Source: a virus (taxonomy: Duplodnaviria > Heunggongvirae > Uroviricota > Caudoviricetes). From it: DNA of 27,463 nt. Positions 2,496-14,062 of this stretch are shown piece by piece. Location: the IMG/VR virus record IMGVR_UViG_2545824714_000008; one strand, 5' to 3'. The notes below the pieces were generated by a model, which had not been told where the DNA came from, made no database searches, and saw only the letters and a list, made by a program, of their open reading frames with translations. Each line of letters begins with the position of its first letter. The stretch's first letter is position 1. Position numbers and translations under genes: made by a program.

Positions 2496-2621
2496 GTAAT
2501 TATTAGCTTCAAAATTATTTTTGCACGAATCAGGTATTACCAAGTAGTTGTCAGTTTTTAAAAACCCAACATCCTAAAATTAGCATTGTTTTTTAACCAC
2601 AAAACATCCACGGAGAAGAAC

Positions 2622-3431
2622 GTGTCAAAAAAGGATACAATCCAGATTATCGATATCAGGATGCAGAGACCAATCATAGCAAGAATAGAAGAAGAAAATT
2701 TAAATTTGACATTGCAAATGTCAGATAAAGCCACATTATCTGGTGCGACAGTTAGTTTTTTCACCCCAAATAACGTTTCTATATTCTTATCCTCAGCAAA
2801 AAAAGAGCTCTCAAAATCCAATTCTATATATAAAAGTCTTTTTGGAAAAATACACAAAACCAAACATAAAAACTTTAAAATTTCCGACAAAGCCCTGCCG
2901 AGACTCTATAATTACTTTGAATCAATTCAGACGGCCATTATTTCTATGTATACTGCAATTGAGTCTTTTGCAAATATATGCATACCACATGATTATGTTT
3001 ATGAAAAAAACAATGCCAAGGGAATCAAAGAATCCTATAGCAAAGAGCTAATTGAGCGATATATACCAACAAGTGAAAAAATAGATAAAATCCTACCGTC
3101 TATTTTAAATTGTGATTCGCCTAAAGGTTCAAAACTATGGCAAGATTTTAAAAGCCTTGAGTCACTTAGAAATGACATAATTCACCCCAAGACAACAAAG
3201 AAAAACACAGAAACAAAAGAAGACTCATCTTTTTTATGCATTTTACTATCAGATGACTTTATAAAAAAAGTTTCCTGTGGATTTGATTTGGTATCTTATT
3301 TTTGCAAACAAGACACTACTCATAGTCTTTTCCCAATGGGTTTCGGTGAAATTGAACTTAAACCTGTCCCAATTAAAGCCGGTGACTTTGAAAAAGTTGA
3401 TGATCATGATGAAATAGAATTACCATCATAA
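2622..3431 (+). CDS. Hypothetical protein, low-GC orphan (about 269 aa from GTG 2622; the ORF opens at TTG 2586)
   Basis: Long uninterrupted ORF in markedly AT-rich DNA with GGAG 6 nt before GTG 2622. Contains an R-x4-H stretch (LRNDIIHPK). No family recognised. Confidence 0.6.
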   Translation: MSKKDTIQIIDIRMQRPIIARIEEENLNLTLQMSDKATLSGATVSFFTPNNVSIFLSSAKKELSKSNSIYKSLFGKIHKTKHKNFKISDKALPRLYNYFESIQTAIISMYTAIESFANICIPHDYVYEKNNAKGIKESYSKELIERYIPTSEKIDKILPSILNCDSPKGSKLWQDFKSLESLRNDIIHPKTTKKNTETKEDSSFLCILLSDDFIKKVSCGFDLVSYFCKQDTTHSLFPMGFGEIELKPVPIKAGDFEKVDDHDEIELPS

Positions 3432-3547: not shown

Positions 3548-4588
3548 TTAATCTTTCCATTTAAAACCATTACATAATGTTAAAGGATTAAATGTTACAG
3601 CCTCCTCAAGATGATCCGGGGAGAAATGTGCATACTTCATAGTTTCACGAATATTCGCATGACCGAGTATACGTTGCAGCACAAGAATATTCCCGCCATT
3701 CATCATAAAATGAGCGCCGAAGGTATGACGCAGAACGTGTGTCTTTTGCCCTTCCGTCAGTTCGATATCCGTTAGTTTGAGCATCTTTTTAAACTCCTGA
3801 TAGCAAGGCTTAAACATCTTTCCCTGCCTTTCAGATAATTCGTCATACAACCATTTTGGGATCGGAACGGTTCGATTCTTTTTCCCTTTCGTTTTGGTGA
3901 AGGTCAGTTTATGTGGCGAGAGCTGGGGACGTGTCAACCTCTCAGCCTCACCCCATCTAGCACCTGTTGCAAGACAAATCTTAACAATCATGGTGAGGTC
4001 TTCTTTTCCGTATTGCTCGCATGCCTGAAACAATTTCGGAATTTGAGACAAAGTGAGCCAAGACATTTCTTTCTCGGCTTCCTTGAAAACACGGACTCCA
4101 TCAAGTGGATTTGGTAAGCTCCACTCCCCTAGCCTTTTGAGCTCATTAAATACAGCCTCAAGATATTGTTGCTCACGATTGACAGTTATCGGTTTAGCAA
4201 TCCATTTTGCCGGGTCTTTATGATAGCCATTATCTATCTCCCCCCGAAGTCGGCGGTCACGGTAATGAGCCCAATCTTTAGCAGTAAGGCGGGATGCAAT
4301 AGGGTCACCAAGTCCATTACACACGATTTGAAGTTTAGCTAACCGCGACTTACTGGCGACCAGTGCCTGTCCGTGTAAATTATGCCAAAGCTGGATAATC
4401 TCACTTAAGCGTCGGCGGTCTTCTTTCTTGCCGAGCCACGGCTTATCCTCACTCTCACTTTTCGTAAATGCTTCGAATGCCTCGGCCTCACCTTTGGTAT
4501 TGAATTGCCGACGTATACGCCGCCCTTCTCGACCATTTGGATAGAGCTCGCATAACCATTTGCCATTTTTTTGCTTACTTACAGTCAT
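3548..4588 (-). CDS. int: Phage integrase, tyrosine recombinase (P2 Int family)
   Basis: 346-aa ORF with the C-terminal catalytic region (HVLRHTF ... LGHANIRETMKYAH) at the prophage end, downstream of the repressor. Confidence 0.9.
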   Translation of the reverse strand: MTVSKQKNGKWLCELYPNGREGRRIRRQFNTKGEAEAFEAFTKSESEDKPWLGKKEDRRRLSEIIQLWHNLHGQALVASKSRLAKLQIVCNGLGDPIASRLTAKDWAHYRDRRLRGEIDNGYHKDPAKWIAKPITVNREQQYLEAVFNELKRLGEWSLPNPLDGVRVFKEAEKEMSWLTLSQIPKLFQACEQYGKEDLTMIVKICLATGARWGEAERLTRPQLSPHKLTFTKTKGKKNRTVPIPKWLYDELSERQGKMFKPCYQEFKKMLKLTDIELTEGQKTHVLRHTFGAHFMMNGGNILVLQRILGHANIRETMKYAHFSPDHLEEAVTFNPLTLCNGFKWKD

Positions 4589-4610: not shown

Positions 4611-4949
4611 TTATTCCCAAAGTGCTGTTGCAGCATCCATTACAGGATCCAAAGGAATTTTTACGCCTGCATACTCCGGGCTATCTTTCCAAACAGTATC
4701 AATATTGCTCCCCTCAAGCTTTCCAGACTTTACTCCATCAATCGCAAAACCATTTAATGGGTATCGGTCATCTGTTGCTTTGTCGTACACAAAGGCATAT
4801 TTACCGTTGACACAAGACACCGTAGCTTTTTCAAAAGTTAACGGCCAATCCTCACCAAACTTAGCGCCATCTAAATCCTGTGTTTTTTCAGCGGCTGAGG
4901 CTCCAAAAGAAAGGGTAAGAAGCAGAGCTAAAAAGAGTTTACATTTCAT
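4611..4949 (-). CDS. Small secreted protein of unknown function (signal peptide), lying between cI and int
   Basis: Probable start is MKCKLFLALLLTLSFGASAAE (ATG at 4949, AGGGA upstream), giving about 112 aa. The ORF extends to 5021 but that would overlap cI. Confidence 0.65.
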   Translation of the reverse strand: MKCKLFLALLLTLSFGASAAEKTQDLDGAKFGEDWPLTFEKATVSCVNGKYAFVYDKATDDRYPLNGFAIDGVKSGKLEGSNIDTVWKDSPEYAGVKIPLDPVMDAATALWE

Positions 4950-4957
4950 AATGTCCC

Positions 4958-5818
4958 TTACACGTGTTTTTCCAATGTGAAAACTACAGCCCCGGCAGGA
5001 GTAATGTCTGTAATGTTGCATTCAAACTCAGCAGACTTATTTGACAACCTGACTTTTCCACCGGGCAAGCGAATTACATCAAAAACATCAAGAGCGCCGT
5101 CGATATCAATTAACCAGCGACCATTACTTATATTCGAAGCAGAACAGTCGACAAGCCAAGAGGCAGCTACACCGTCAACAAAAATCAATTCCCCTGAGTT
5201 AGAAGGAATCATTGAGGGGTCAGGATGCCACGTTCCTGCATCCTTAAGCTCACCAGATTCAAGACGAGATTTTTTAATAGAAAAACCAGATGTGACATCT
5301 TCCCTGTTAGCTCGCATTTGCCCCTTGCCTGTTGCTAACCATTCCAGTGACGTATCGGTATCAAGAGCGCATGTAACAACAACATCACCAGGGAAAAAAT
5401 CTCGCCTTACCCATGTGCTAATTGTGCCAGAGGAAATGCCGAGCAAATCACCGAGCTCCTTTTGCATGGTAAAGCCATACGCATCAAGAATCCTACGCAA
5501 AACGGTTTTACCACCATTCGTCATAATCTCGTCATAAAGCTCTTTGCCTTTTAACTTGCAACTGGCTCGCTCGTGATTTGCATTTGCAAGTTCTCCATTT
5601 ACAAGCCAATTGATATCAGCTCCCGTGTCAAGACAACACCTAACTATGACATTGCCAGGTATTGCATCACGCTGAACCCAGCCGCTAACGCTGTGTTTAG
5701 CGATACCTAGCAGGTCAGCCAAATCCTTTTGCATCTTGACCCCATAGGCTGACATTAAGCGTTCCAATACGCCGTTCGTTGCACTAACACGCCACTGAAC
5801 ATCAAGCTCAGAACTCAT
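4958..5818 (-). CDS. cI: CI-type prophage repressor with a tandemly duplicated N-terminal DNA-binding domain
   Basis: 286 aa. Two similar ~60-aa segments (LERLMSAYGVKMQKDLADLLGIAKHSVSGWVQRDAIPGNVIVRCCLDTGADINWLVNGE and LRRILDAYGFTMQKELGDLLGISSGTISTWVRRDFFPGDVVVTCALDTDTSLEWLATGK) resemble the 186 CI N-terminal domain. Position is next to int and divergent from the lytic operon. Confidence 0.8.
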   Translation of the reverse strand: MSSELDVQWRVSATNGVLERLMSAYGVKMQKDLADLLGIAKHSVSGWVQRDAIPGNVIVRCCLDTGADINWLVNGELANANHERASCKLKGKELYDEIMTNGGKTVLRRILDAYGFTMQKELGDLLGISSGTISTWVRRDFFPGDVVVTCALDTDTSLEWLATGKGQMRANREDVTSGFSIKKSRLESGELKDAGTWHPDPSMIPSNSGELIFVDGVAASWLVDCSASNISNGRWLIDIDGALDVFDVIRLPGGKVRLSNKSAEFECNITDITPAGAVVFTLEKHV

Positions 5819-5939
5819 AAAAACCCCTACAGATAATTTTATGGGTGTTTACAGAAAACTTTTTACGATCTATAGTGGCATTCATCGACCAAGATGCACA
5901 CCACTGCACTACATTTCAAACAACAGGAGATAATGCGAT
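5819..5939. promoter_or_regulatory. Lysis-lysogeny switch region (repressor and early lytic promoters, operators)
   Basis: 121-bp interval between the cI start and the apl/cox-like start, with repeated TACAGA/TTTACAG motifs. Exact promoters not mapped. Confidence 0.5.
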
Positions 5940-6311
5940 ATGTCAGATGCAAAATCAATCTCGACGCACGACTCGCAAAACTCACAAAATCAAACTGTGC
6001 TGCTAGATCCAACACAGTTTGATGCCATCGTTACCGCCATGCTGCCAGCTCTACAGACAATGATTCGCTCCGCTATGTCAGACACGATGACTGTGAAAGA
6101 CTTCGCCGCTACTAGCGGTGTTAGCGAGCGTCTGGTCTGGCAATGGCTCGATGAGGGAGTCCTTCTCAAAGCTCCGACCAAAGACTTTTCCAACAAAGAA
6201 GAAGCTGCTAAACGAAGCCGAACCCTCGTAAACGTAAAAGCATGGCGCGATAAGCTGACTCAACAAGCGATTGATTGTCGCTACATCGACCAGCGCACCG
6301 CTCTTAACTGA
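5940..6311 (+). CDS. Apl/Cox-like excisionase / early regulator (helix-turn-helix); true start may be an internal Met
   Basis: First gene of the early rightward operon. Carries an HTH-like segment (VKDFAATSGVSERLVWQWLDEGVL). The ORF is 123 aa, or about 90 aa from an internal Met. Confidence 0.6.
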   Translation: MSDAKSISTHDSQNSQNQTVLLDPTQFDAIVTAMLPALQTMIRSAMSDTMTVKDFAATSGVSERLVWQWLDEGVLLKAPTKDFSNKEEAAKRSRTLVNVKAWRDKLTQQAIDCRYIDQRTALN

Positions 6312-6343: not shown

Positions 6344-6853
6344 ATGTTTGATTTTCAGGTTTCCAAACATCCCCACTATGACGAAGCATGCCGCATTTTC
6401 GCACAGCGTCACAATATGGCGAAGCTGGCCGAGCGTGCAGGTATGAACGTTCAAACGTTACGTAACAAGCTCAACCCGGAACAGCCTCACCAGTTCACGC
6501 CGTCTGAATTGTGGCTGCTGACTGACCTGACCGAAGACTCAACCCTCATTGATGGTTTTTTAGCGCAGATTCACTGCCTACCATGCGTGCCGGTTAATGA
6601 GTTGGCTAAAGACAAATTGCAGTCTTATGTCATGCGCGCAATGCGTGAACTCGGCGAACTGGCGAGCGGCGCGGTATCTGATGAACGTCTGACCATTGCC
6701 CGTAAGCACAACATGATTGAAAGCGTTAACTCCGGCATTCGCATGTTGTCATTGTCGGCTCTGGCTCTGCATGCACGTCTGCAGACTAATCCAGCTATGT
6801 CGAGCGTGGTCGATACCATGAGCGGTATTGGCGCATCGTTTGGTCTGATTTGA
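6344..6853 (+). CDS. cII: CII-like lysogeny-establishment regulator (186 CII family)
   Basis: From ATG 6344 (AGAGGGA 8 nt upstream) the product is 169 aa, the length of 186 CII. It follows the apl-like gene. Confidence 0.75.
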   Translation: MFDFQVSKHPHYDEACRIFAQRHNMAKLAERAGMNVQTLRNKLNPEQPHQFTPSELWLLTDLTEDSTLIDGFLAQIHCLPCVPVNELAKDKLQSYVMRAMRELGELASGAVSDERLTIARKHNMIESVNSGIRMLSLSALALHARLQTNPAMSSVVDTMSGIGASFGLI

Positions 6854-7880: not shown

Positions 7881-10103
7881 TTGGCTGTTCAATTCGCTTA
7901 TCCGTGGAACGTCCCACGGTCGGCAATCTCCAGCCCATACCTTACTTATGAGCAACAGCATCGCCGCGACCGTATGTTCGCGGCTTTGCTGCATGCAAAA
8001 AAGGGGCTTTCTCTCCAGCCCGACTGCGTGCGGTTAGATGTTTATCGCACTGCTGCGGTGCTGGAACAAAATCAGGGTAGTAAACGAGCCAATGCATTTT
8101 TAATCAGCTTCTGCAAAAAGGCATTGCCGCGTCTTGAACTGGTCGCAAAAAAATACGAATGCGCTGGTATCAACAGCAAGGTATCAACCGCTGTTTTTGG
8201 AAGTCATTTTGATACTCAGCAAATGCAATATCTGTCGTCACGCATGGTTAATATGGTCGCCCGATATAACCGTCTCCCGGACATGTCGCGCGCTGATGTT
8301 GACCTGTTGGCCGCTGATATTGCTAATTTCATTCGTGGTGAACTTGCCAACATTAATGACCACGGATTCGGCGAGCTTAAAACGCTGTACACCTGGTATA
8401 TTCGTGCTGGCTTTATTTCCCTCCAATTCAACGTTATCCCACCACATTGGGAGCGGGTTGAAAAAAAATATGTCGGTGCGGATGAAATCGCACCGGCTAT
8501 CGCCAAAATGTTTAACGATGGGTGGTGGCGCGGTCGTTTGCGCCGTGTAGCAGCTACGTGGCGCGAACACCTGCAAATTGCAGTCGGCAACGTCAGTAAG
8601 AAAAAAAACACTTACGCGAGTAAAAACTGCGTGACTGACTGGCGTGAACAAAAGCGCCGCACTCGTGAATTTCTCAAAGGTCTGGATCTCGAAGACGAAG
8701 ACGGCAACCGTATCAGCCTAATTGAAAAATATGATGGCTCAGTTGCTAACCCTGCGATTCGCCGCTGTGAGCTCATGACCCGCATTCGTGGGTTTGAAAA
8801 CATCTGTAATGAGCTCGGTTATGTCGGTGAGTTTTACACTCTAACCGCGCCGTCAAAATATCACGCCACGACTAAAGCCGGTTACCGTAACAGCAAATGG
8901 AGCGGTGCCAGCCCGGCTGACACGCAAAACTATCTAACCGGTATCTGGGCGCGTATCCGTGCCAAACTACATCGGGAAGATGTCCGTATTTTCGGTATTC
9001 GTGTCGCCGAGCCCCATCACGACGGCACTCCACACTGGCACATGCTGATGTTCATGCTGCCGGAAGATGTTGAATATGTTCGCTCCATCGTCCGTAAATA
9101 CGCATGGAAAGAAGACCGCCACGAACTGAAAAGCGATAAATCCCAAAAAGCACGTTTCCACGCGGAGTCCATTGACCCGGAGAAAGGCAGCGCAACCGGC
9201 TATGTTGCTAAATACATTTCAAAAAATATCGACGGTTATGCTCTCGATGGTGAAACCGATGATGAAAGCGGTGAGCTGCTGAAAGAGACAGCCCCCGCCG
9301 TTTCAGCATGGGCTGCGCGCTGGCACATCCGTCAGTTTCAGTTTATTGGTGGTGCGCCGGTGACGGTTTACCGTGAGTTGCGTCGCCTCGCTGATACCGA
9401 AACCGCGCACGGTCTGAGCGTTGAGTTTGCCGCCGTCCATGATGCCGCCGACGCTGGTGACTGGGCTGGTTATGTTAATGCTCAGGGTGGGCCGTTTGTC
9501 CGTCGCGATGATTTACAGGTGCGCACACTGTATGAACCGCGTACCGAGCTTAATCAGTACGGTGAGGAAACGGTATGTATTAAGGGGGTCTACGATTCCT
9601 CCATAGGTGCAGGAAGCCCGATTTTAACCCGGCTCACTCAGTGGAAGATTGTTCCGAAGCGTGCTGTTGATTTGGCCGTTGACCTTCAGGACGGCAAAGC
9701 CGTCCCTCGGAGTTCTGTCAATAACTGTACGGGAAGCGAAAGCGATCCACCGATACTGGATTTAACAAAACCACTGAGTCGGCGTGAAAGACGAGAATTG
9801 ACCAACCTACTCAGGAAGCAAAAGCCAGCAGCACGGCGAAAATTCATCCACGGAACGGATGAGCAAAACGCAGCTATAGCTAAAACTATCGATGAGATAC
9901 ATCTGACAACCGGCATTAATATCAGCCGGGGCGAAGCCCTGCACCTGATGGCCGGTGGTAAAAGTTGTTTTGATGGTAAATGGCTACGCGGAACGGCCAA
10001 AGGAGAAATATTTTCCGCAGCACCATCGCATGAGGCTAAAGCTCGGAAAATCCTTAATCGTGTTGCGGCGATGGCTGAAGCATCAAAACCAATACATGAG
10101 TAA
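7881..10103 (+). CDS. A: Rolling-circle replication initiation protein (P2 gpA family)
   Basis: 740 aa containing EPHHDGTPHWHMLMF and GYVAKYISKNIDGYALDG, matching P2 A motifs as recalled. TTG start with GGGGGT upstream. Confidence 0.9.
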   Translation: MAVQFAYPWNVPRSAISSPYLTYEQQHRRDRMFAALLHAKKGLSLQPDCVRLDVYRTAAVLEQNQGSKRANAFLISFCKKALPRLELVAKKYECAGINSKVSTAVFGSHFDTQQMQYLSSRMVNMVARYNRLPDMSRADVDLLAADIANFIRGELANINDHGFGELKTLYTWYIRAGFISLQFNVIPPHWERVEKKYVGADEIAPAIAKMFNDGWWRGRLRRVAATWREHLQIAVGNVSKKKNTYASKNCVTDWREQKRRTREFLKGLDLEDEDGNRISLIEKYDGSVANPAIRRCELMTRIRGFENICNELGYVGEFYTLTAPSKYHATTKAGYRNSKWSGASPADTQNYLTGIWARIRAKLHREDVRIFGIRVAEPHHDGTPHWHMLMFMLPEDVEYVRSIVRKYAWKEDRHELKSDKSQKARFHAESIDPEKGSATGYVAKYISKNIDGYALDGETDDESGELLKETAPAVSAWAARWHIRQFQFIGGAPVTVYRELRRLADTETAHGLSVEFAAVHDAADAGDWAGYVNAQGGPFVRRDDLQVRTLYEPRTELNQYGEETVCIKGVYDSSIGAGSPILTRLTQWKIVPKRAVDLAVDLQDGKAVPRSSVNNCTGSESDPPILDLTKPLSRRERRELTNLLRKQKPAARRKFIHGTDEQNAAIAKTIDEIHLTTGINISRGEALHLMAGGKSCFDGKWLRGTAKGEIFSAAPSHEAKARKILNRVAAMAEASKPIHE

Positions 10104-10177: not shown

Positions 10178-10197
10178 TACTGTATAAATATACAGTA
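10178..10197 (+). promoter_or_regulatory. LexA (SOS) box overlapping a promoter, upstream of a small-ORF operon
   Basis: TACTGTATAAATATACAGTA is a perfect CTGT-N8-ACAG box with an AT-rich spacer, about 20 bp upstream of the ATG at 10217. Confidence 0.8.
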
Positions 10198-10216: not shown

Positions 10217-10399
10217 ATGGTTGGCGAACATTTCAGCCGAACGCAGCAAAAGTGGGCTTGTGTGCAATTTATTGCCGAGGTATCTCTGATTGCAAACTGC
10301 AAGCCATCAGACTTAAAGCTCGCGCTCACTCTCATTGCAGACCTAGCAAACAGCGAGAATAACGAAACCGAAGATGATAATTTTTATAAGGCTGATTAG
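10217..10399 (+). CDS. Small SOS-regulated protein (candidate Tum-like antirepressor function)
   Basis: 60-aa ORF with GGGAGGG upstream, directly downstream of the LexA box. Confidence 0.55.
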   Translation: MVGEHFSRTQQKWACVQFIAEVSLIANCKPSDLKLALTLIADLANSENNETEDDNFYKAD

Positions 10400-10402
10400 A
10401 TT

Positions 10403-10636
10403 ATGAGAATCAATATCACGTTGGATAAAGAGCAAAAAATTAGTCAGGCAACATTGGATGCACTTGAGGCTGAACTGTACCGCAATCTTCAACCTATTTA
10501 CCCAAAGACTGCTATCCGAATTCGCAAGGGCTCCGCTAATGGCGTTGAACTAAGCGGTTTGAAACTGGACGAAGATAAAAAACGAGTAATGGAAATCATG
10601 CAGCAGGTATGGGAGGACGATAGCTGGCTGCATTAA
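10403..10636 (+). CDS. Small hypothetical phage protein
   Basis: 77-aa ORF, 3 nt after the preceding stop, followed immediately by repeat copy 1. Confidence 0.55.
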   Translation: MRINITLDKEQKISQATLDALEAELYRNLQPIYPKTAIRIRKGSANGVELSGLKLDEDKKRVMEIMQQVWEDDSWLH

Positions 10637-10831: not shown

Positions 10832-11041
10832 ATGCATCGACTACCGGGCGAAATTCCGCAGCACAAAACTAAAAGCATCAAACTGATGGCCATCGTTCAT
10901 CGTCTGCAGCAGATAATGGTCAATGAGAATTTGACACCCGCCGAGCTGGTCGGGTGTGCCGAAATAGTCAGGGATAATTACGGCAAGCTGGATAGCATCA
11001 GCAAGCCGACACATTACTCACCGCCACCACGTCGACCATAG
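10832..11041 (+). CDS. Small hypothetical phage protein
   Basis: 69-aa ORF with GAGGG upstream, followed immediately by repeat copy 2. Confidence 0.55.
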   Translation: MHRLPGEIPQHKTKSIKLMAIVHRLQQIMVNENLTPAELVGCAEIVRDNYGKLDSISKPTHYSPPPRRP

Positions 11042-11043
11042 AT

Positions 11044-11112
11044 AACGCCGCCGGAGCTGAAACTCGCTTTCAGGTCTGGCGGGGTTGAACAACGAGCTAC
11101 GCGAGGCGTTAG
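11044..11112 (+). repeat. 69-bp structured repeat, copy 2
   Basis: Same dyad as copy 1 and starts 2 nt after the stop codon. Confidence 0.7.
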
Positions 11113-11174
11113 CCGGTCATAGCGTCGCAAATACTTCAACCGTCTGCTGGTTAAATAATTCGAGGTTTTTGGAC

Positions 11175-11369
11175 ATGCAAAATCCCCTTTCATCGAAAAA
11201 TGACCCGTTTGCCGATTGGGCAAAGAATCTGACTTTAATGGCTTTAAATAACGACCTGAGCTCTCGCGAGGTGGAAAGCTACACCGCAAAAATGGTCGGG
11301 CAGGCCGGTAAAGATGAGCTATCAGTCGTTATCAAACACCTGTTAAATCACATCAGAATGCGCAAATAA
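11175..11369 (+). CDS. Small hypothetical phage protein (ATG 11175; the ORF opens at TTG 11085 inside repeat 2)
   Basis: GAGG about 9 nt before ATG 11175, giving 64 aa. Confidence 0.45.
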   Translation: MQNPLSSKNDPFADWAKNLTLMALNNDLSSREVESYTAKMVGQAGKDELSVVIKHLLNHIRMRK

Positions 11370-11933: not shown

Positions 11934-12938
11934 CTAATTTACATGTATGTAGAGTTCACCGTCGCCAGACCAATCGGGACACTCTAAAACAAGCCCAAAC
12001 TGCTTGAATATTTCATCAATGATTATTGTTATCTCCCGAAAATCACCAAAACCTGTAATGTGCTGGTCATTAAACTTCCCATAAAGATTCTGAAAAGCAA
12101 TGCCTAATTCTGATAATTGATATCTTATCTTTGAGTTGGATAGTGTAAGGGATAGCTTTGGATCGTATTCTTTAATATTGATGTTTAGAGAATGGACATA
12201 ACCCATCGCATAAGCATAAGAGTTGATGATTAGCCTGATACGTTTTTTTACTTCAAGATACATGTCATTCAGAGAAATATTACCGTACTTATAACCCCAG
12301 ATGAGTTTTTCAATCTCGTCAGATACTTCATTTACAACAGTGTCAAGATTCTCTAAAAATAAATCGACAGTTTCTTGAGGGGCAGACCCCGAAGACATGT
12401 AATTAGCGAGATATTCAGACCATGCACGCGTGGCTGAGATAAGAAGCGCGCTACCATACTCGTTGACTGTAAAGTTTTGGGCTAAGCATGTTAGTAAGTT
12501 TTTTTCATGTACGTGCACTAATTCATGGTGAATGCGATGGATGACTGCGAGGTATCCTTCTTCTTTCAGTTTTAAGAAGCTACCATCATTGAAAAGCTCA
12601 ACAAAAAAATCAATCGATAGCACAAGGGTATATTCTTCATATAGCCCATCATTGCCAATTTTTGTTACTAACTGCCCGACGGCTGCGCCCTGTTTGCTAT
12701 TGGTAAATGAACTAGGGGATTTGTGTTGGTAAGAGGATGTTACCTTTTGAAGAGCTTCACTGAAGTTATAGGAAACAATCACGCATTTTAATTTGGAGAT
12801 ATCAAGATTGAGATTCTTTGTTAAAGCTCGGATAGCTTCTAGTGTGAAATTACCGATATTATTTGCTTCTTGCTCAGTAGCGAAACCTTCGAGGGTTATT
12901 TTAAAATCAGTTTCCAAAATATTAATCTCCGCGCCCAT
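11934..12938 (-). CDS. Orphan 334-aa protein in a low-GC insertion between cos and the portal gene (candidate accessory/defence gene)
   Basis: Uninterrupted ORF in AT-rich DNA, co-oriented with portal and terminase. Contains an HHELVH (HExxH-like) stretch and no obvious membrane segments. No Shine-Dalgarno evident. Confidence 0.65.
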   Translation of the reverse strand: MGAEINILETDFKITLEGFATEQEANNIGNFTLEAIRALTKNLNLDISKLKCVIVSYNFSEALQKVTSSYQHKSPSSFTNSKQGAAVGQLVTKIGNDGLYEEYTLVLSIDFFVELFNDGSFLKLKEEGYLAVIHRIHHELVHVHEKNLLTCLAQNFTVNEYGSALLISATRAWSEYLANYMSSGSAPQETVDLFLENLDTVVNEVSDEIEKLIWGYKYGNISLNDMYLEVKKRIRLIINSYAYAMGYVHSLNINIKEYDPKLSLTLSNSKIRYQLSELGIAFQNLYGKFNDQHITGFGDFREITIIIDEIFKQFGLVLECPDWSGDGELYIHVN

Positions 12939-13015: not shown

Positions 13016-14062
13016 TTATTCTGGGTTGTCGAGGGTGTACTCTTTGAATCTGATGACCTCCATGCCGAGCCAGTCATTTACCTCCCTGAACCTGTCCTGT
13101 AGCGGCGACAGCTCGTTGCGCACAAATACCTTTGCCACCTTCTCAACATCACCGAGTGAACCGATATTCTCGGGCTTGCCGCCCATGAGCTGGAACGGTA
13201 CGCGGTGCGCGTCCATCAGATCGGCGGCACTGGCCTTCTTGATGTTGAAAAAGTCATCCTTTGTGGCGACCTCGCTCAGTGGCACGATTTTGATGCCGTC
13301 CGGTTTTCCGCCGGGAGCGTAGAAAAACAGGTTCTTAAAGTTGCCGAGCCCTTTTGAGTTGCGCATCGCCTCGCGCAGCGATTCGACGTCGGTCGCGCTC
13401 TGCGCCGGGTCAGTCACATACATGATGTAGCCTGCGTGCGCGCCGTTCTGATAATACTTGCGGCGGAACAGCGTCGCGGATTCATTCAGCCAAGCGGAAT
13501 TAAGCGCGCTGAGATATTCCGGCAGACCGTAAATCTCCTGATTAATGTCGGGCTCCAGCAGGTGAAACACGGTATCAGGCGCGAACTCGTGCGGCTGGGT
13601 GAAGTTTTCCACAAACCAGAAAATCGAATCGTCGACTCCGCGTCGGGGGTATTTGGCTGGCGAGGCCAGCAGTTTGATTAACTGGCCGGTGACGCTGTGG
13701 CGCTGCTCAAGAAAGGCGTTACCGAACACCAGATAATCGAGCGCAAAGCGGCTGAAATCCTGACGGGATAACAACGGGTGCGGAATGTAGGTGCTCGCGA
13801 GCACGTTACGCTTAACATAAATTGGCGAGCTGTGATGCACGGCAGAGCGCAGGCTCTTTGCCAGCCCTGAGAAGCTGACCGGCGGCTCGTACCATTTGCC
13901 GTTACTGATGCACTCGACGTAATCCAGAATGTCGCGCTTATCGAGTACCGGCACCGGCTCGCCGAAGGTGAACGCTGTCGTTTTTGGCGGTGCGCTGGCG
14001 GTCAGTTGTTGTGGTTTGCTGGCCTTTTGTGCGTTGGCTTTACGGGATTTTTGTTTACCCAT
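13016..14062 (-). CDS. Q: Portal protein (P2 gpQ family)
   Basis: 348 aa (P2 Q is about 344 aa), adjacent to and co-oriented with the large terminase and next to cos. Confidence 0.9.
   Translation of the reverse strand: MGKQKSRKANAQKASKPQQLTASAPPKTTAFTFGEPVPVLDKRDILDYVECISNGKWYEPPVSFSGLAKSLRSAVHHSSPIYVKRNVLASTYIPHPLLSRQDFSRFALDYLVFGNAFLEQRHSVTGQLIKLLASPAKYPRRGVDDSIFWFVENFTQPHEFAPDTVFHLLEPDINQEIYGLPEYLSALNSAWLNESATLFRRKYYQNGAHAGYIMYVTDPAQSATDVESLREAMRNSKGLGNFKNLFFYAPGGKPDGIKIVPLSEVATKDDFFNIKKASAADLMDAHRVPFQLMGGKPENIGSLGDVEKVAKVFVRNELSPLQDRFREVNDWLGMEVIRFKEYTLDNPE

Follow-up and report, generated by a model that had tools for sequence, protein, structure and literature searches.

The immunity repressor CI encoded in the 27,463-nucleotide stretch of caudoviral DNA analyzed here (hereafter the window) is almost certainly a real and functional 186-type CI with two DNA-binding heads, in which two tandem copies of the N-terminal HTH domain (NTD1 and NTD2) precede a single C-terminal oligomerization domain (CTD). 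Two tandem N-terminal DNA-binding domains had been proposed in a preliminary description of this locus, and the coordinates, the sequences quoted there, and the comparison of 286 aa with about 192 aa in coliphage 186 CI have all proved correct (186 CI has 192 aa). Like the 186-type repressors, the protein combines the N-terminal HTH domain of the PF07022 family, here in both copies, with a PF16452 CTD; whereas those repressors have one HTH per chain of about 190 to 200 aa, this one has two such domains in 286 aa. The two-headed CI is a real, widespread, recurrent, and mechanistically suggestive elaboration of 186 CI, not a new kind of system.

Self-comparison of the protein and domain searches both reveal the two heads. 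In a BLASTP comparison of aa 1-87 with aa 88-286, residues ∼14-76 match residues ∼100-165 with 52% identity (34/66) and an E value of 2e-23, so the similarity of the two heads is far outside chance. Pfam recognizes PF07022 (Phage_CI_repr) in two stretches (whole-protein E value, 1.3e-52) and PF16452 (Phage_CI_C) at aa 180-277 (E value, 1e-20), with no match to the S24 peptidase anywhere in the protein, and in a domain HMM built in this work the heads span aa 14-78 and 103-167 and the CTD spans aa 177-286. Residues invariant in the family, among them the W-x-x-R in helix 3, are retained by both heads. The structure of 186 CI (PDB 2fjr, 189 residues) aligns only to residues 105-280, that is, to NTD2 plus the CTD, which means that these two parts make up a normal 186-type CI and that the first copy, NTD1, is the extra one. 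The second segment can therefore be neither a linker nor part of the oligomerization domain; with its five helices it constitutes a complete PF07022 domain, the counterpart of the one NTD in 186 CI. The two repressors share about 32% identity.

An AF2 model of CI, built with 57 homologues as input (mean pLDDT, 78; pTM, 0.51), contains two five-helix heads, with NTD1 at a pLDDT of about 80-86, and a beta-rich CTD. The connectors are weak, with pLDDT values below 50 at aa 83-86 and 171-177, and there is no confident inter-domain or head-to-head packing in the model (pTM, 0.51), so that the modeled chain resembles beads on a string. A helix at aa 92-114 includes a helical extension (aa 92-103) into NTD2. 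The linker residues L89, G91, K92, L94, Y95, and E97 are invariant in alignment A2; in alignment A3, G91 and Y95 are invariant and L89, K92, L94, and E97 are nearly so. Foldseek searches with the CI model returned 186 CI as the top match (2fjr; E value, 5.6e-16), and the modeled CTD superposes on that of 186 CI (2fkd_A), the part that forms the 14-mer, with a TM score of 0.90 and an rmsd of 1.5. The CTDs of LexA and lambda CI match at the fold level alone (E values of 3e-6 or weaker, 10-19% identity).

Table 1. Features of the repressor locus and its surroundings, in window coordinates
Feature	Position	Strand	Description
int	3548-4588		Tyrosine integrase
DUF2511 secreted protein	4611-4949	-	DUF2511/YebY-like, with signal peptide (MKCKLFLALLLTLSFGASA...); Pfam E value, 4.5e-16
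cI	4958..5818	-	286-aa ORF, two-headed 186/PSP3-type immunity repressor; stop codon at 4958-4960
CTD	4961..5281	-	aa 180-286; oligomerization domain of the 186 CI type (PF16452 and Foldseek)
NTD2	5318..5512	-	aa 103-167; unusually conserved HTH head in the ancestral position; recognition helix SSGTISTWVRRD
Inter-head linker	5513..5584	-	aa 79-102; disordered start, then conserved LKGKxLYDEIM helix running into NTD2
NTD1	5585..5779	-	aa 14-78 (HMM bounds); added, fast-diverging HTH head; predicted recognition helix AKHSVSGWVQRD
Candidate CI operator region	5828..5870	+	Two direct repeat units 22 bp apart, TACAGATAATTTTATGGGTG and TACAGAAAACTTTTTACGATC
Candidate lytic promoter pR	5848-5876	+	TTTACA-17-TATAGT, facing the apl-like gene; promoter scan, 10/12 matches
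Weak candidate pL	5891-5919	-	TTGAAA-17-CATCTT
apl/cox-position gene	5940..6311	+	123 aa; opens the pR operon; non-canonical Cox-like protein
cII	6344..6853	+	Establishment activator of the CP76 family; PF06892, E value 3.7e-46
740-aa ORF	7881-10103		Located where PSP3 has the putative replicase gp36
LexA box	10180-10195	+	CTGTATAAATATACAG, perfect match, ahead of tumA
tumA	10217-10399	+	60 aa; 98% identity with the annotated tumA of PSP3
DinI-family gene	10403-10636	+	Separate gene after tumA (split tum region)
334-aa ORF	11934-12938	-	Between tumA/dinI and the 348-aa ORF at 13016-14062

The locus is the lysis-lysogeny switch of a PSP3/186-like prophage of the P2 family (Table 1). The cI gene, whose ATG is preceded at 5 nt by what reads as a Shine-Dalgarno sequence (AGGGG), lies upstream of int and is divergent from pR-apl-cII; this is the P2/186-type layout, and the annotated record of coliphage 186 has the same order, int and cI followed by the divergent pR, apl, and cII. 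The DUF2511 gene located between cI and int is presumably part of the lysogenic operon, and the same order of int, DUF2511, and PF07022 genes has been noted in Enterobacteriaceae (PMC8689200). The pR candidate has the features of a strong sigma-70 promoter, and its position and hexamers are the same in 40 related loci. The protein encoded at the apl position had no Pfam match over its 123 aa; it matched phrog_3554 and, weakly, the Cox-like phrog_575. Direct repeats TGCAC-N5-TGCAC (positions 5895-5909) are found between pR and the weak pL candidate, and ATGCAC repeats occupy the same position in other loci, including those with single-NTD repressors; these repeats are candidate sites for the Apl-like protein. 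The interval between tumA/dinI and the 348-aa ORF, which we take from its position to be the portal gene, contains the 334-aa ORF and two small ORFs (10832-11369), for which no Pfam or PADLOC match was found. In P2-like phages, this interval is the seat of variable cargo or defense genes (old/tin).

The duplication anticipated in the preliminary description is thus real but not private to this prophage. The repressor is essentially the same protein as the CI of Salmonella phage PSP3 (AAN08403, 286 aa; 97.9% identity), a phage that also has the operator region, tumA, and apl-position gene of the window; with the CI of E. coli phage vB_EcoM-613R3, identity is 99.7%. The cI gene with its operator region matches 68 of 5,426 genomes, where it is annotated simply as “phage repressor protein CI,” and many complete E. 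coli chromosomes carry copies that are 100% identical. The best 120 protein clusters (58-97% identity), with hosts in Klebsiella, Enterobacter, Salmonella, Citrobacter, Pantoea, and other genera, are 277-290 aa long and contain both Pfam families, the three exceptions being a 208-aa match that lacks the CTD, a 267-aa partial sequence, and a sequence of 270 aa. An exhaustive domain search of 50%-identity representatives yielded 76 proteins with a single NTD and a CTD versus about 13 clusters with a double NTD and a CTD. The latter comprise PSP3-like proteins of 285-294 aa, as one class, and several classes with lengths of 313-358 aa; two copies of PF07022 and one of PF16452 are recognized by Pfam in the 4LV2017, P0184, and P0199 types. 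Two-headed CIs are a large and old subfamily, common in the prophages of Enterobacterales. The release of the PSP3 genome made the sequence public, and any domain scan gives two PF07022 matches; nevertheless, the searchable literature yielded no prior description or functional study of tandem CI heads and no biochemical characterization of PSP3 CI, which a comparative paper described as having “a longer C-terminal domain” (PMC3448106).

NTD2 copies of the PSP3-like clade cluster by position (55-84% identity), so that the duplication must be older than the clade. The NTD1 copies of different clades formed one group in none of 200 bootstraps; both heads of the 4LV-like proteins are nearer to another set of single-NTD CIs (68-84% identity) than to the PSP3-like heads (at most 55%); and the two heads of the P0184-like proteins are each other's nearest relatives. 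Together, these relationships indicate that the two-headed form arose at least three times. The front head may, in some of these cases, be a fusion-derived acquisition from a heterologous CI rather than the product of a simple internal duplication, as supposed in the preliminary description. Further architectures are represented by P0184, P0199, and L001:2920-3861, independent two-headed lineages with heads 52-69% identical to each other, and by P0237 (323 aa), which has three PF07022 domains and no CTD. P0214 (525 aa, six matched stretches) was rejected as a CI, being a generic protein with seven HTH_3 domains. An apparent disruption of NTD1 in the Lonsdalea loci was likewise rejected, as the gene is intact, starts with GTG, and encodes 288 aa. 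In the L039 locus (Enterobacter sp. EA-1, cI at ∼2501-3322), which is otherwise of the Kosakonia two-headed type, the region of the NTD2 recognition helix is garbled (QMQK-ISVICWISRPSAPHWVRRE); local frameshifts, a sequencing error, or a decaying copy could be responsible.

The two heads evolve at different rates. Among nine representatives of the PSP3-like clusters, the mean pairwise identity is 46% in NTD1, 69% in NTD2, and 32% in the CTD, with NTD2 more similar than NTD1 in 35 of 36 pairs. In single-NTD controls whose CTDs are about as divergent, identity is 48% in the NTD and 34% in the CTD, which indicates that NTD1 evolves like an ordinary CI head and that NTD2 is unusually constrained. 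NTD2 is also the head to which 68 of the 76 single-NTD CIs are nearer, and among true single-NTD proteins its nearest relatives, 196 aa long and of the Rahnella type, show 80% identity to it and share its recognition helix. Unlike in 186 CI, with its one head, the heads of this protein have therefore diverged in evolutionary rate and apparently in role.

Comparison of the window with the Midge and SW9 loci, which carry two other NTD1 types, gives the same picture. Their NTD2 sequences are 91-92% identical in amino acids and 74-78% in nucleotides, with the same codon used at just 37-50% of the conserved residues, a combination that points to purifying selection rather than recent exchange. The NTD1 sequences are 49-60% identical in amino acids, with a between-type dN of 0.3-0.55. 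Most of what distinguishes the types lies in NTD1, and its predicted recognition helix also begins differently in each (AKHS in the window, PSNS in Midge, and HANN in SW9), whereas the NTD2 recognition helix SSGTISTWVRRD is constant across the three. Within NTD1 types, dN/dS is 0.01-0.08 in NTD1 (with dS saturated) and 0.014-0.05 in NTD2, compared to 0.2-0.58 in the linker between the heads and 0.07-0.39 in the CTD; the low values in NTD1 and NTD2 indicate that both heads are functional. Nucleotide identity between the window and Midge drops from 88% in the CTD to 78% in NTD2, which suggests a second mosaic joint, inside cI. A conserved internal start at M99 that would give an extra 186-sized protein was considered and rejected, as this residue is Leu in Midge and others.

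The variation of NTD1 is matched by that of the adjacent operator DNA. Alignment of the cI-apl intergenic regions revealed a mosaic joint at the −10 hexamer of pR (window ∼5866-5880). To the right of it, the DNA with the pL region and the apl-position gene is common to window/PSP3, Midge, and SW9; to the left, the ∼55 bp up to the cI start are wholly different between the three and go with the NTD1 type. In a survey of 70 loci from different species, in which recognition helices were tabulated against the upstream DNA, the NTD1 helix type tracked the DNA to the left of the pR −10 hexamer in the 40 non-redundant two-headed loci. The second of the two repeat units in the candidate operator region of the window ends in CGATC (5866-5870), which adjoins the pR −10 hexamer. 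A degenerate 18-nt pattern of the repeat unit has two matches in the window versus 0.24 expected, a number reached in 3 of 100 shuffles, and Midge has an analogous repeat pair 21 bp apart. The 22-bp period of the window corresponds to the two-turn phasing reported for the pR operators of 186 (PMC3675496); the operators of 186 are three inverted repeats, those of the window an asymmetric unit repeated directly. The sequence TAYAKATA, a pattern defined post hoc after inspection of the loci, is found upstream of the −35 hexamer in all 5 loci with the NTD1 helix of the window and in none of the 35 others; one of the 5 is from Pantoea, at saturated synonymous divergence, and has the element in inverted orientation and at a shifted position.

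Elements of a different kind seem to go with NTD2. The single-NTD CIs with an NTD2-like head from Rahnella and Ewingella prophages (196 aa, P0133; up to 80% identical to NTD2) have the recognition helix, the CTD family, and the pR position of the window but only one head, and their pR-spacer operators are symmetric palindromes with paired GCRAG half-sites. Single-NTD relatives with the helix of NTD2 carry a palindrome in the pR spacer, such as ACTCGCAAATGCGAGT, and contain GC[AG]AG at 1.70 per region versus 0.10 in shuffles. In the two-headed loci, CGAT[CT] is found at 1.30 per region versus 0.14 in shuffles; with one locus per NTD1 type, CGAT/ATCG is counted 26 times versus 7.3 ± 2.8, and none of 1000 shuffles reaches 26. 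The CGAT element adjoins the −10 hexamer in 16 of 24 NTD1 types, most of the exceptions having an altered NTD2 helix or a different palindrome, and the sequence that partners this element varies with the NTD1 type. Judged by sequence, the CGAT(C/T) element resembles a half-site of the palindromic operators of the single-NTD relatives.

Operator geometry is heterogeneous, and no single binding mode fits all two-headed loci. A symmetric pR-spacer palindrome that matches at least 7 of 8 positions is present in 11 of the 40 two-headed loci; some loci combine a symmetric NTD2-type palindrome (AATCGCATTTGCGATT) with other repeated elements; still others have ∼40-bp four-part palindromes centered on the −35 hexamer, and the window has direct repeats. 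The rule that two-headed repressors go with asymmetric or direct-repeat operators and single-headed ones with palindromes was rejected because of those 11 loci; the strict palindrome score was reached by only 3 of 23 single-headed loci, even though these are palindromic by eye. Within the window, no symmetric NTD2-type site was found at pR, nor elsewhere above chance. In a search for distal operators, the repeat unit, the NTD2-type palindrome, and phased CGAT pairs were all at chance level in the window, so that the FL/FR sites of 186 have no detected counterpart there. A CATC-N6-GATG pseudo-palindrome just downstream of the pR −10 hexamer was set aside as an NTD2 site, as by eye it goes with the apl-type block rather than with NTD2.

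On balance, these data favor a division of labor in which both heads bind DNA, with NTD1 as the immunity-specific head and NTD2 as the conserved one. Every mechanistic step beyond the CI architecture, including the assignment of sequences to heads, the stoichiometry, and the target of TumA, is one that we infer from the observed folds, conservation and selection patterns, operator co-variation, and motif enrichment. Each CI chain would place two HTH heads in front of the 186-type oligomerization domain. NTD2, the original head beside the CTD, most likely reads the CGAT(C/T)-type half-site against the pR −10 hexamer and possibly is constrained also as a target of TumA. NTD1, the added head, would set the immunity specificity, most likely by reading the type-specific DNA in the ∼55 bp that separate the cI start from the pR −10 hexamer; its probable targets in the window are the TACAGA-containing units repeated at 22 bp, or two DNA turns. 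Flexible linkers would allow the heads to reach neighboring major grooves while the CTDs assemble as in 186, and a dimer would then carry four heads and a 14-mer 28. Two covalently linked HTH units are also found in engineered single-chain 434 repressors, in the DNA-binding domain of AraC/MarA, and in the Wolbachia prophage protein Wmk. Such linked units can read different half-sites, so that their operators need not be symmetric; these proteins have no sequence relationship to the window CI and provide a functional analogy only. The second specificity suggested in the preliminary description agrees in part with these data, given an NTD1 that varies with the operator DNA next to a nearly invariant NTD2. 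The main confound is that the NTD1-coding DNA adjoins the operators, so that mosaic co-inheritance could give co-variation without contact; similarly, the CGAT element, located at the edge of the conserved promoter block, could have been kept for promoter reasons or by descent.

Induction would proceed through TumA, which, by analogy with coliphage 186, is expected to be an SOS-controlled antirepressor that inactivates the window CI. A LexA-controlled antirepressor of the Tum type takes the place of RecA-stimulated cleavage in 186, and the same may hold for the window, with its tumA homologue. In PSP3, which has the same split tum region, the upstream gene has been reported, from a personal communication, to encode the antirepressor (PMC3121763). 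The tumA genes of the window, Midge, and SW9 are 98-99% identical in DNA. Since the same TumA accompanies three different NTD1 types, it would have to act on a conserved part of CI, either NTD2 or the CTD. Such identity reflects a recently shared DNA block and therefore speaks for compatibility, not for co-evolution.

The patterns seen in NTD2 could also be explained if NTD1 alone read the operators and NTD2, devoid of sequence-specific binding, were kept as a docking surface for TumA or as an adaptor between NTD1 and the CTD wheel. This would account for the conservation of NTD2 in excess of an ordinary CI NTD (69% versus 48%), for its invariance across heteroimmune-looking types with identical tumA, and for a pR spacer that, in the window, lacks the symmetric NTD2-type palindrome of the single-NTD relatives. 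Such a role appears unlikely, however, given that NTD2 has the exact recognition helix of single-NTD CIs, where it belongs to the sole DNA-binding domain, that a half-site like theirs is retained and enriched at pR, and that altered NTD2 helices accompany altered −10-proximal sequences; the CTD, moreover, is an equally possible target of TumA. Somewhat more improbable is that the heads work on separate targets, with pairs of NTD2 bound to symmetric operators of the ancestral type, possibly those of related phages (cross-immunity), and pairs of NTD1 bound to their own type-specific sites. Two recognition classes of one 186 HTH would in that case be split between two domains; Shearwin, Dodd, and Egan reportedly described, in J Biol Chem in 2002, the recognition of two site types by the single 186 CI HTH. 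In keeping with separate targets, 186 CI has been reported to act through five distinct operators (PMC7708051), the symmetric NTD2-type palindrome stands next to other repeats in some two-headed loci, and the repeated origin of the architecture suggests a general advantage, but the window itself is devoid of a symmetric NTD2-type site above chance.

A neutral or decaying duplication, or an artifact of annotation or assembly such as two fused genes, is a most improbable source of the extra domain. The only argument for this reading is the unusual length of the protein, in which one paper saw a longer C-terminal domain (PMC3448106), and it is refuted by the data on selection and distribution: isolated phages and more than 100 protein clusters share this ORF in uninterrupted form, many complete E. 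coli chromosomes carry it with 100% identity, and NTD1 has a dN/dS of 0.01-0.08 with saturated dS. NTD1 is also well folded in the AF2 model.

A wider reading of the division of labor, more doubtful than the division itself and offered here only tentatively, is that of a modular repressor, in which the NTD2 core head, the CTD, and TumA would be common to a group of P2/186-like prophages and NTD1 would be swappable, together with the adjacent operators, as an immunity cassette. If so, immunity would be changed by the exchange of about 350 bp (NTD1 and the pR operators), with the same TumA still inducing, and heteroimmune prophages in one cell would be co-induced.

Prophages with two-headed CIs are frequent in the genomes of E. 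coli, Klebsiella, Salmonella, and Enterobacter, where the uniform label “phage repressor protein CI” assigned by annotation pipelines conceals the distinction between one- and two-headed repressors. Its repeated evolution, at least three times independently, suggests that the two-headed architecture carries some general selective advantage. The CI of 186 is among the few repressors with a worked-out higher-order mechanism, which includes a 14-mer wheel, DNA wrapping, looping, and the relief of transcriptional interference. A common relative in nature that has double the number of heads per wheel, divided into a conserved and a variable one, would address how asymmetric operators are fitted to a symmetric oligomer and whether heteroimmune prophages can be co-induced by one antirepressor, and may serve as a system for the encoding and exchange of immunity specificity in P2-like prophages.
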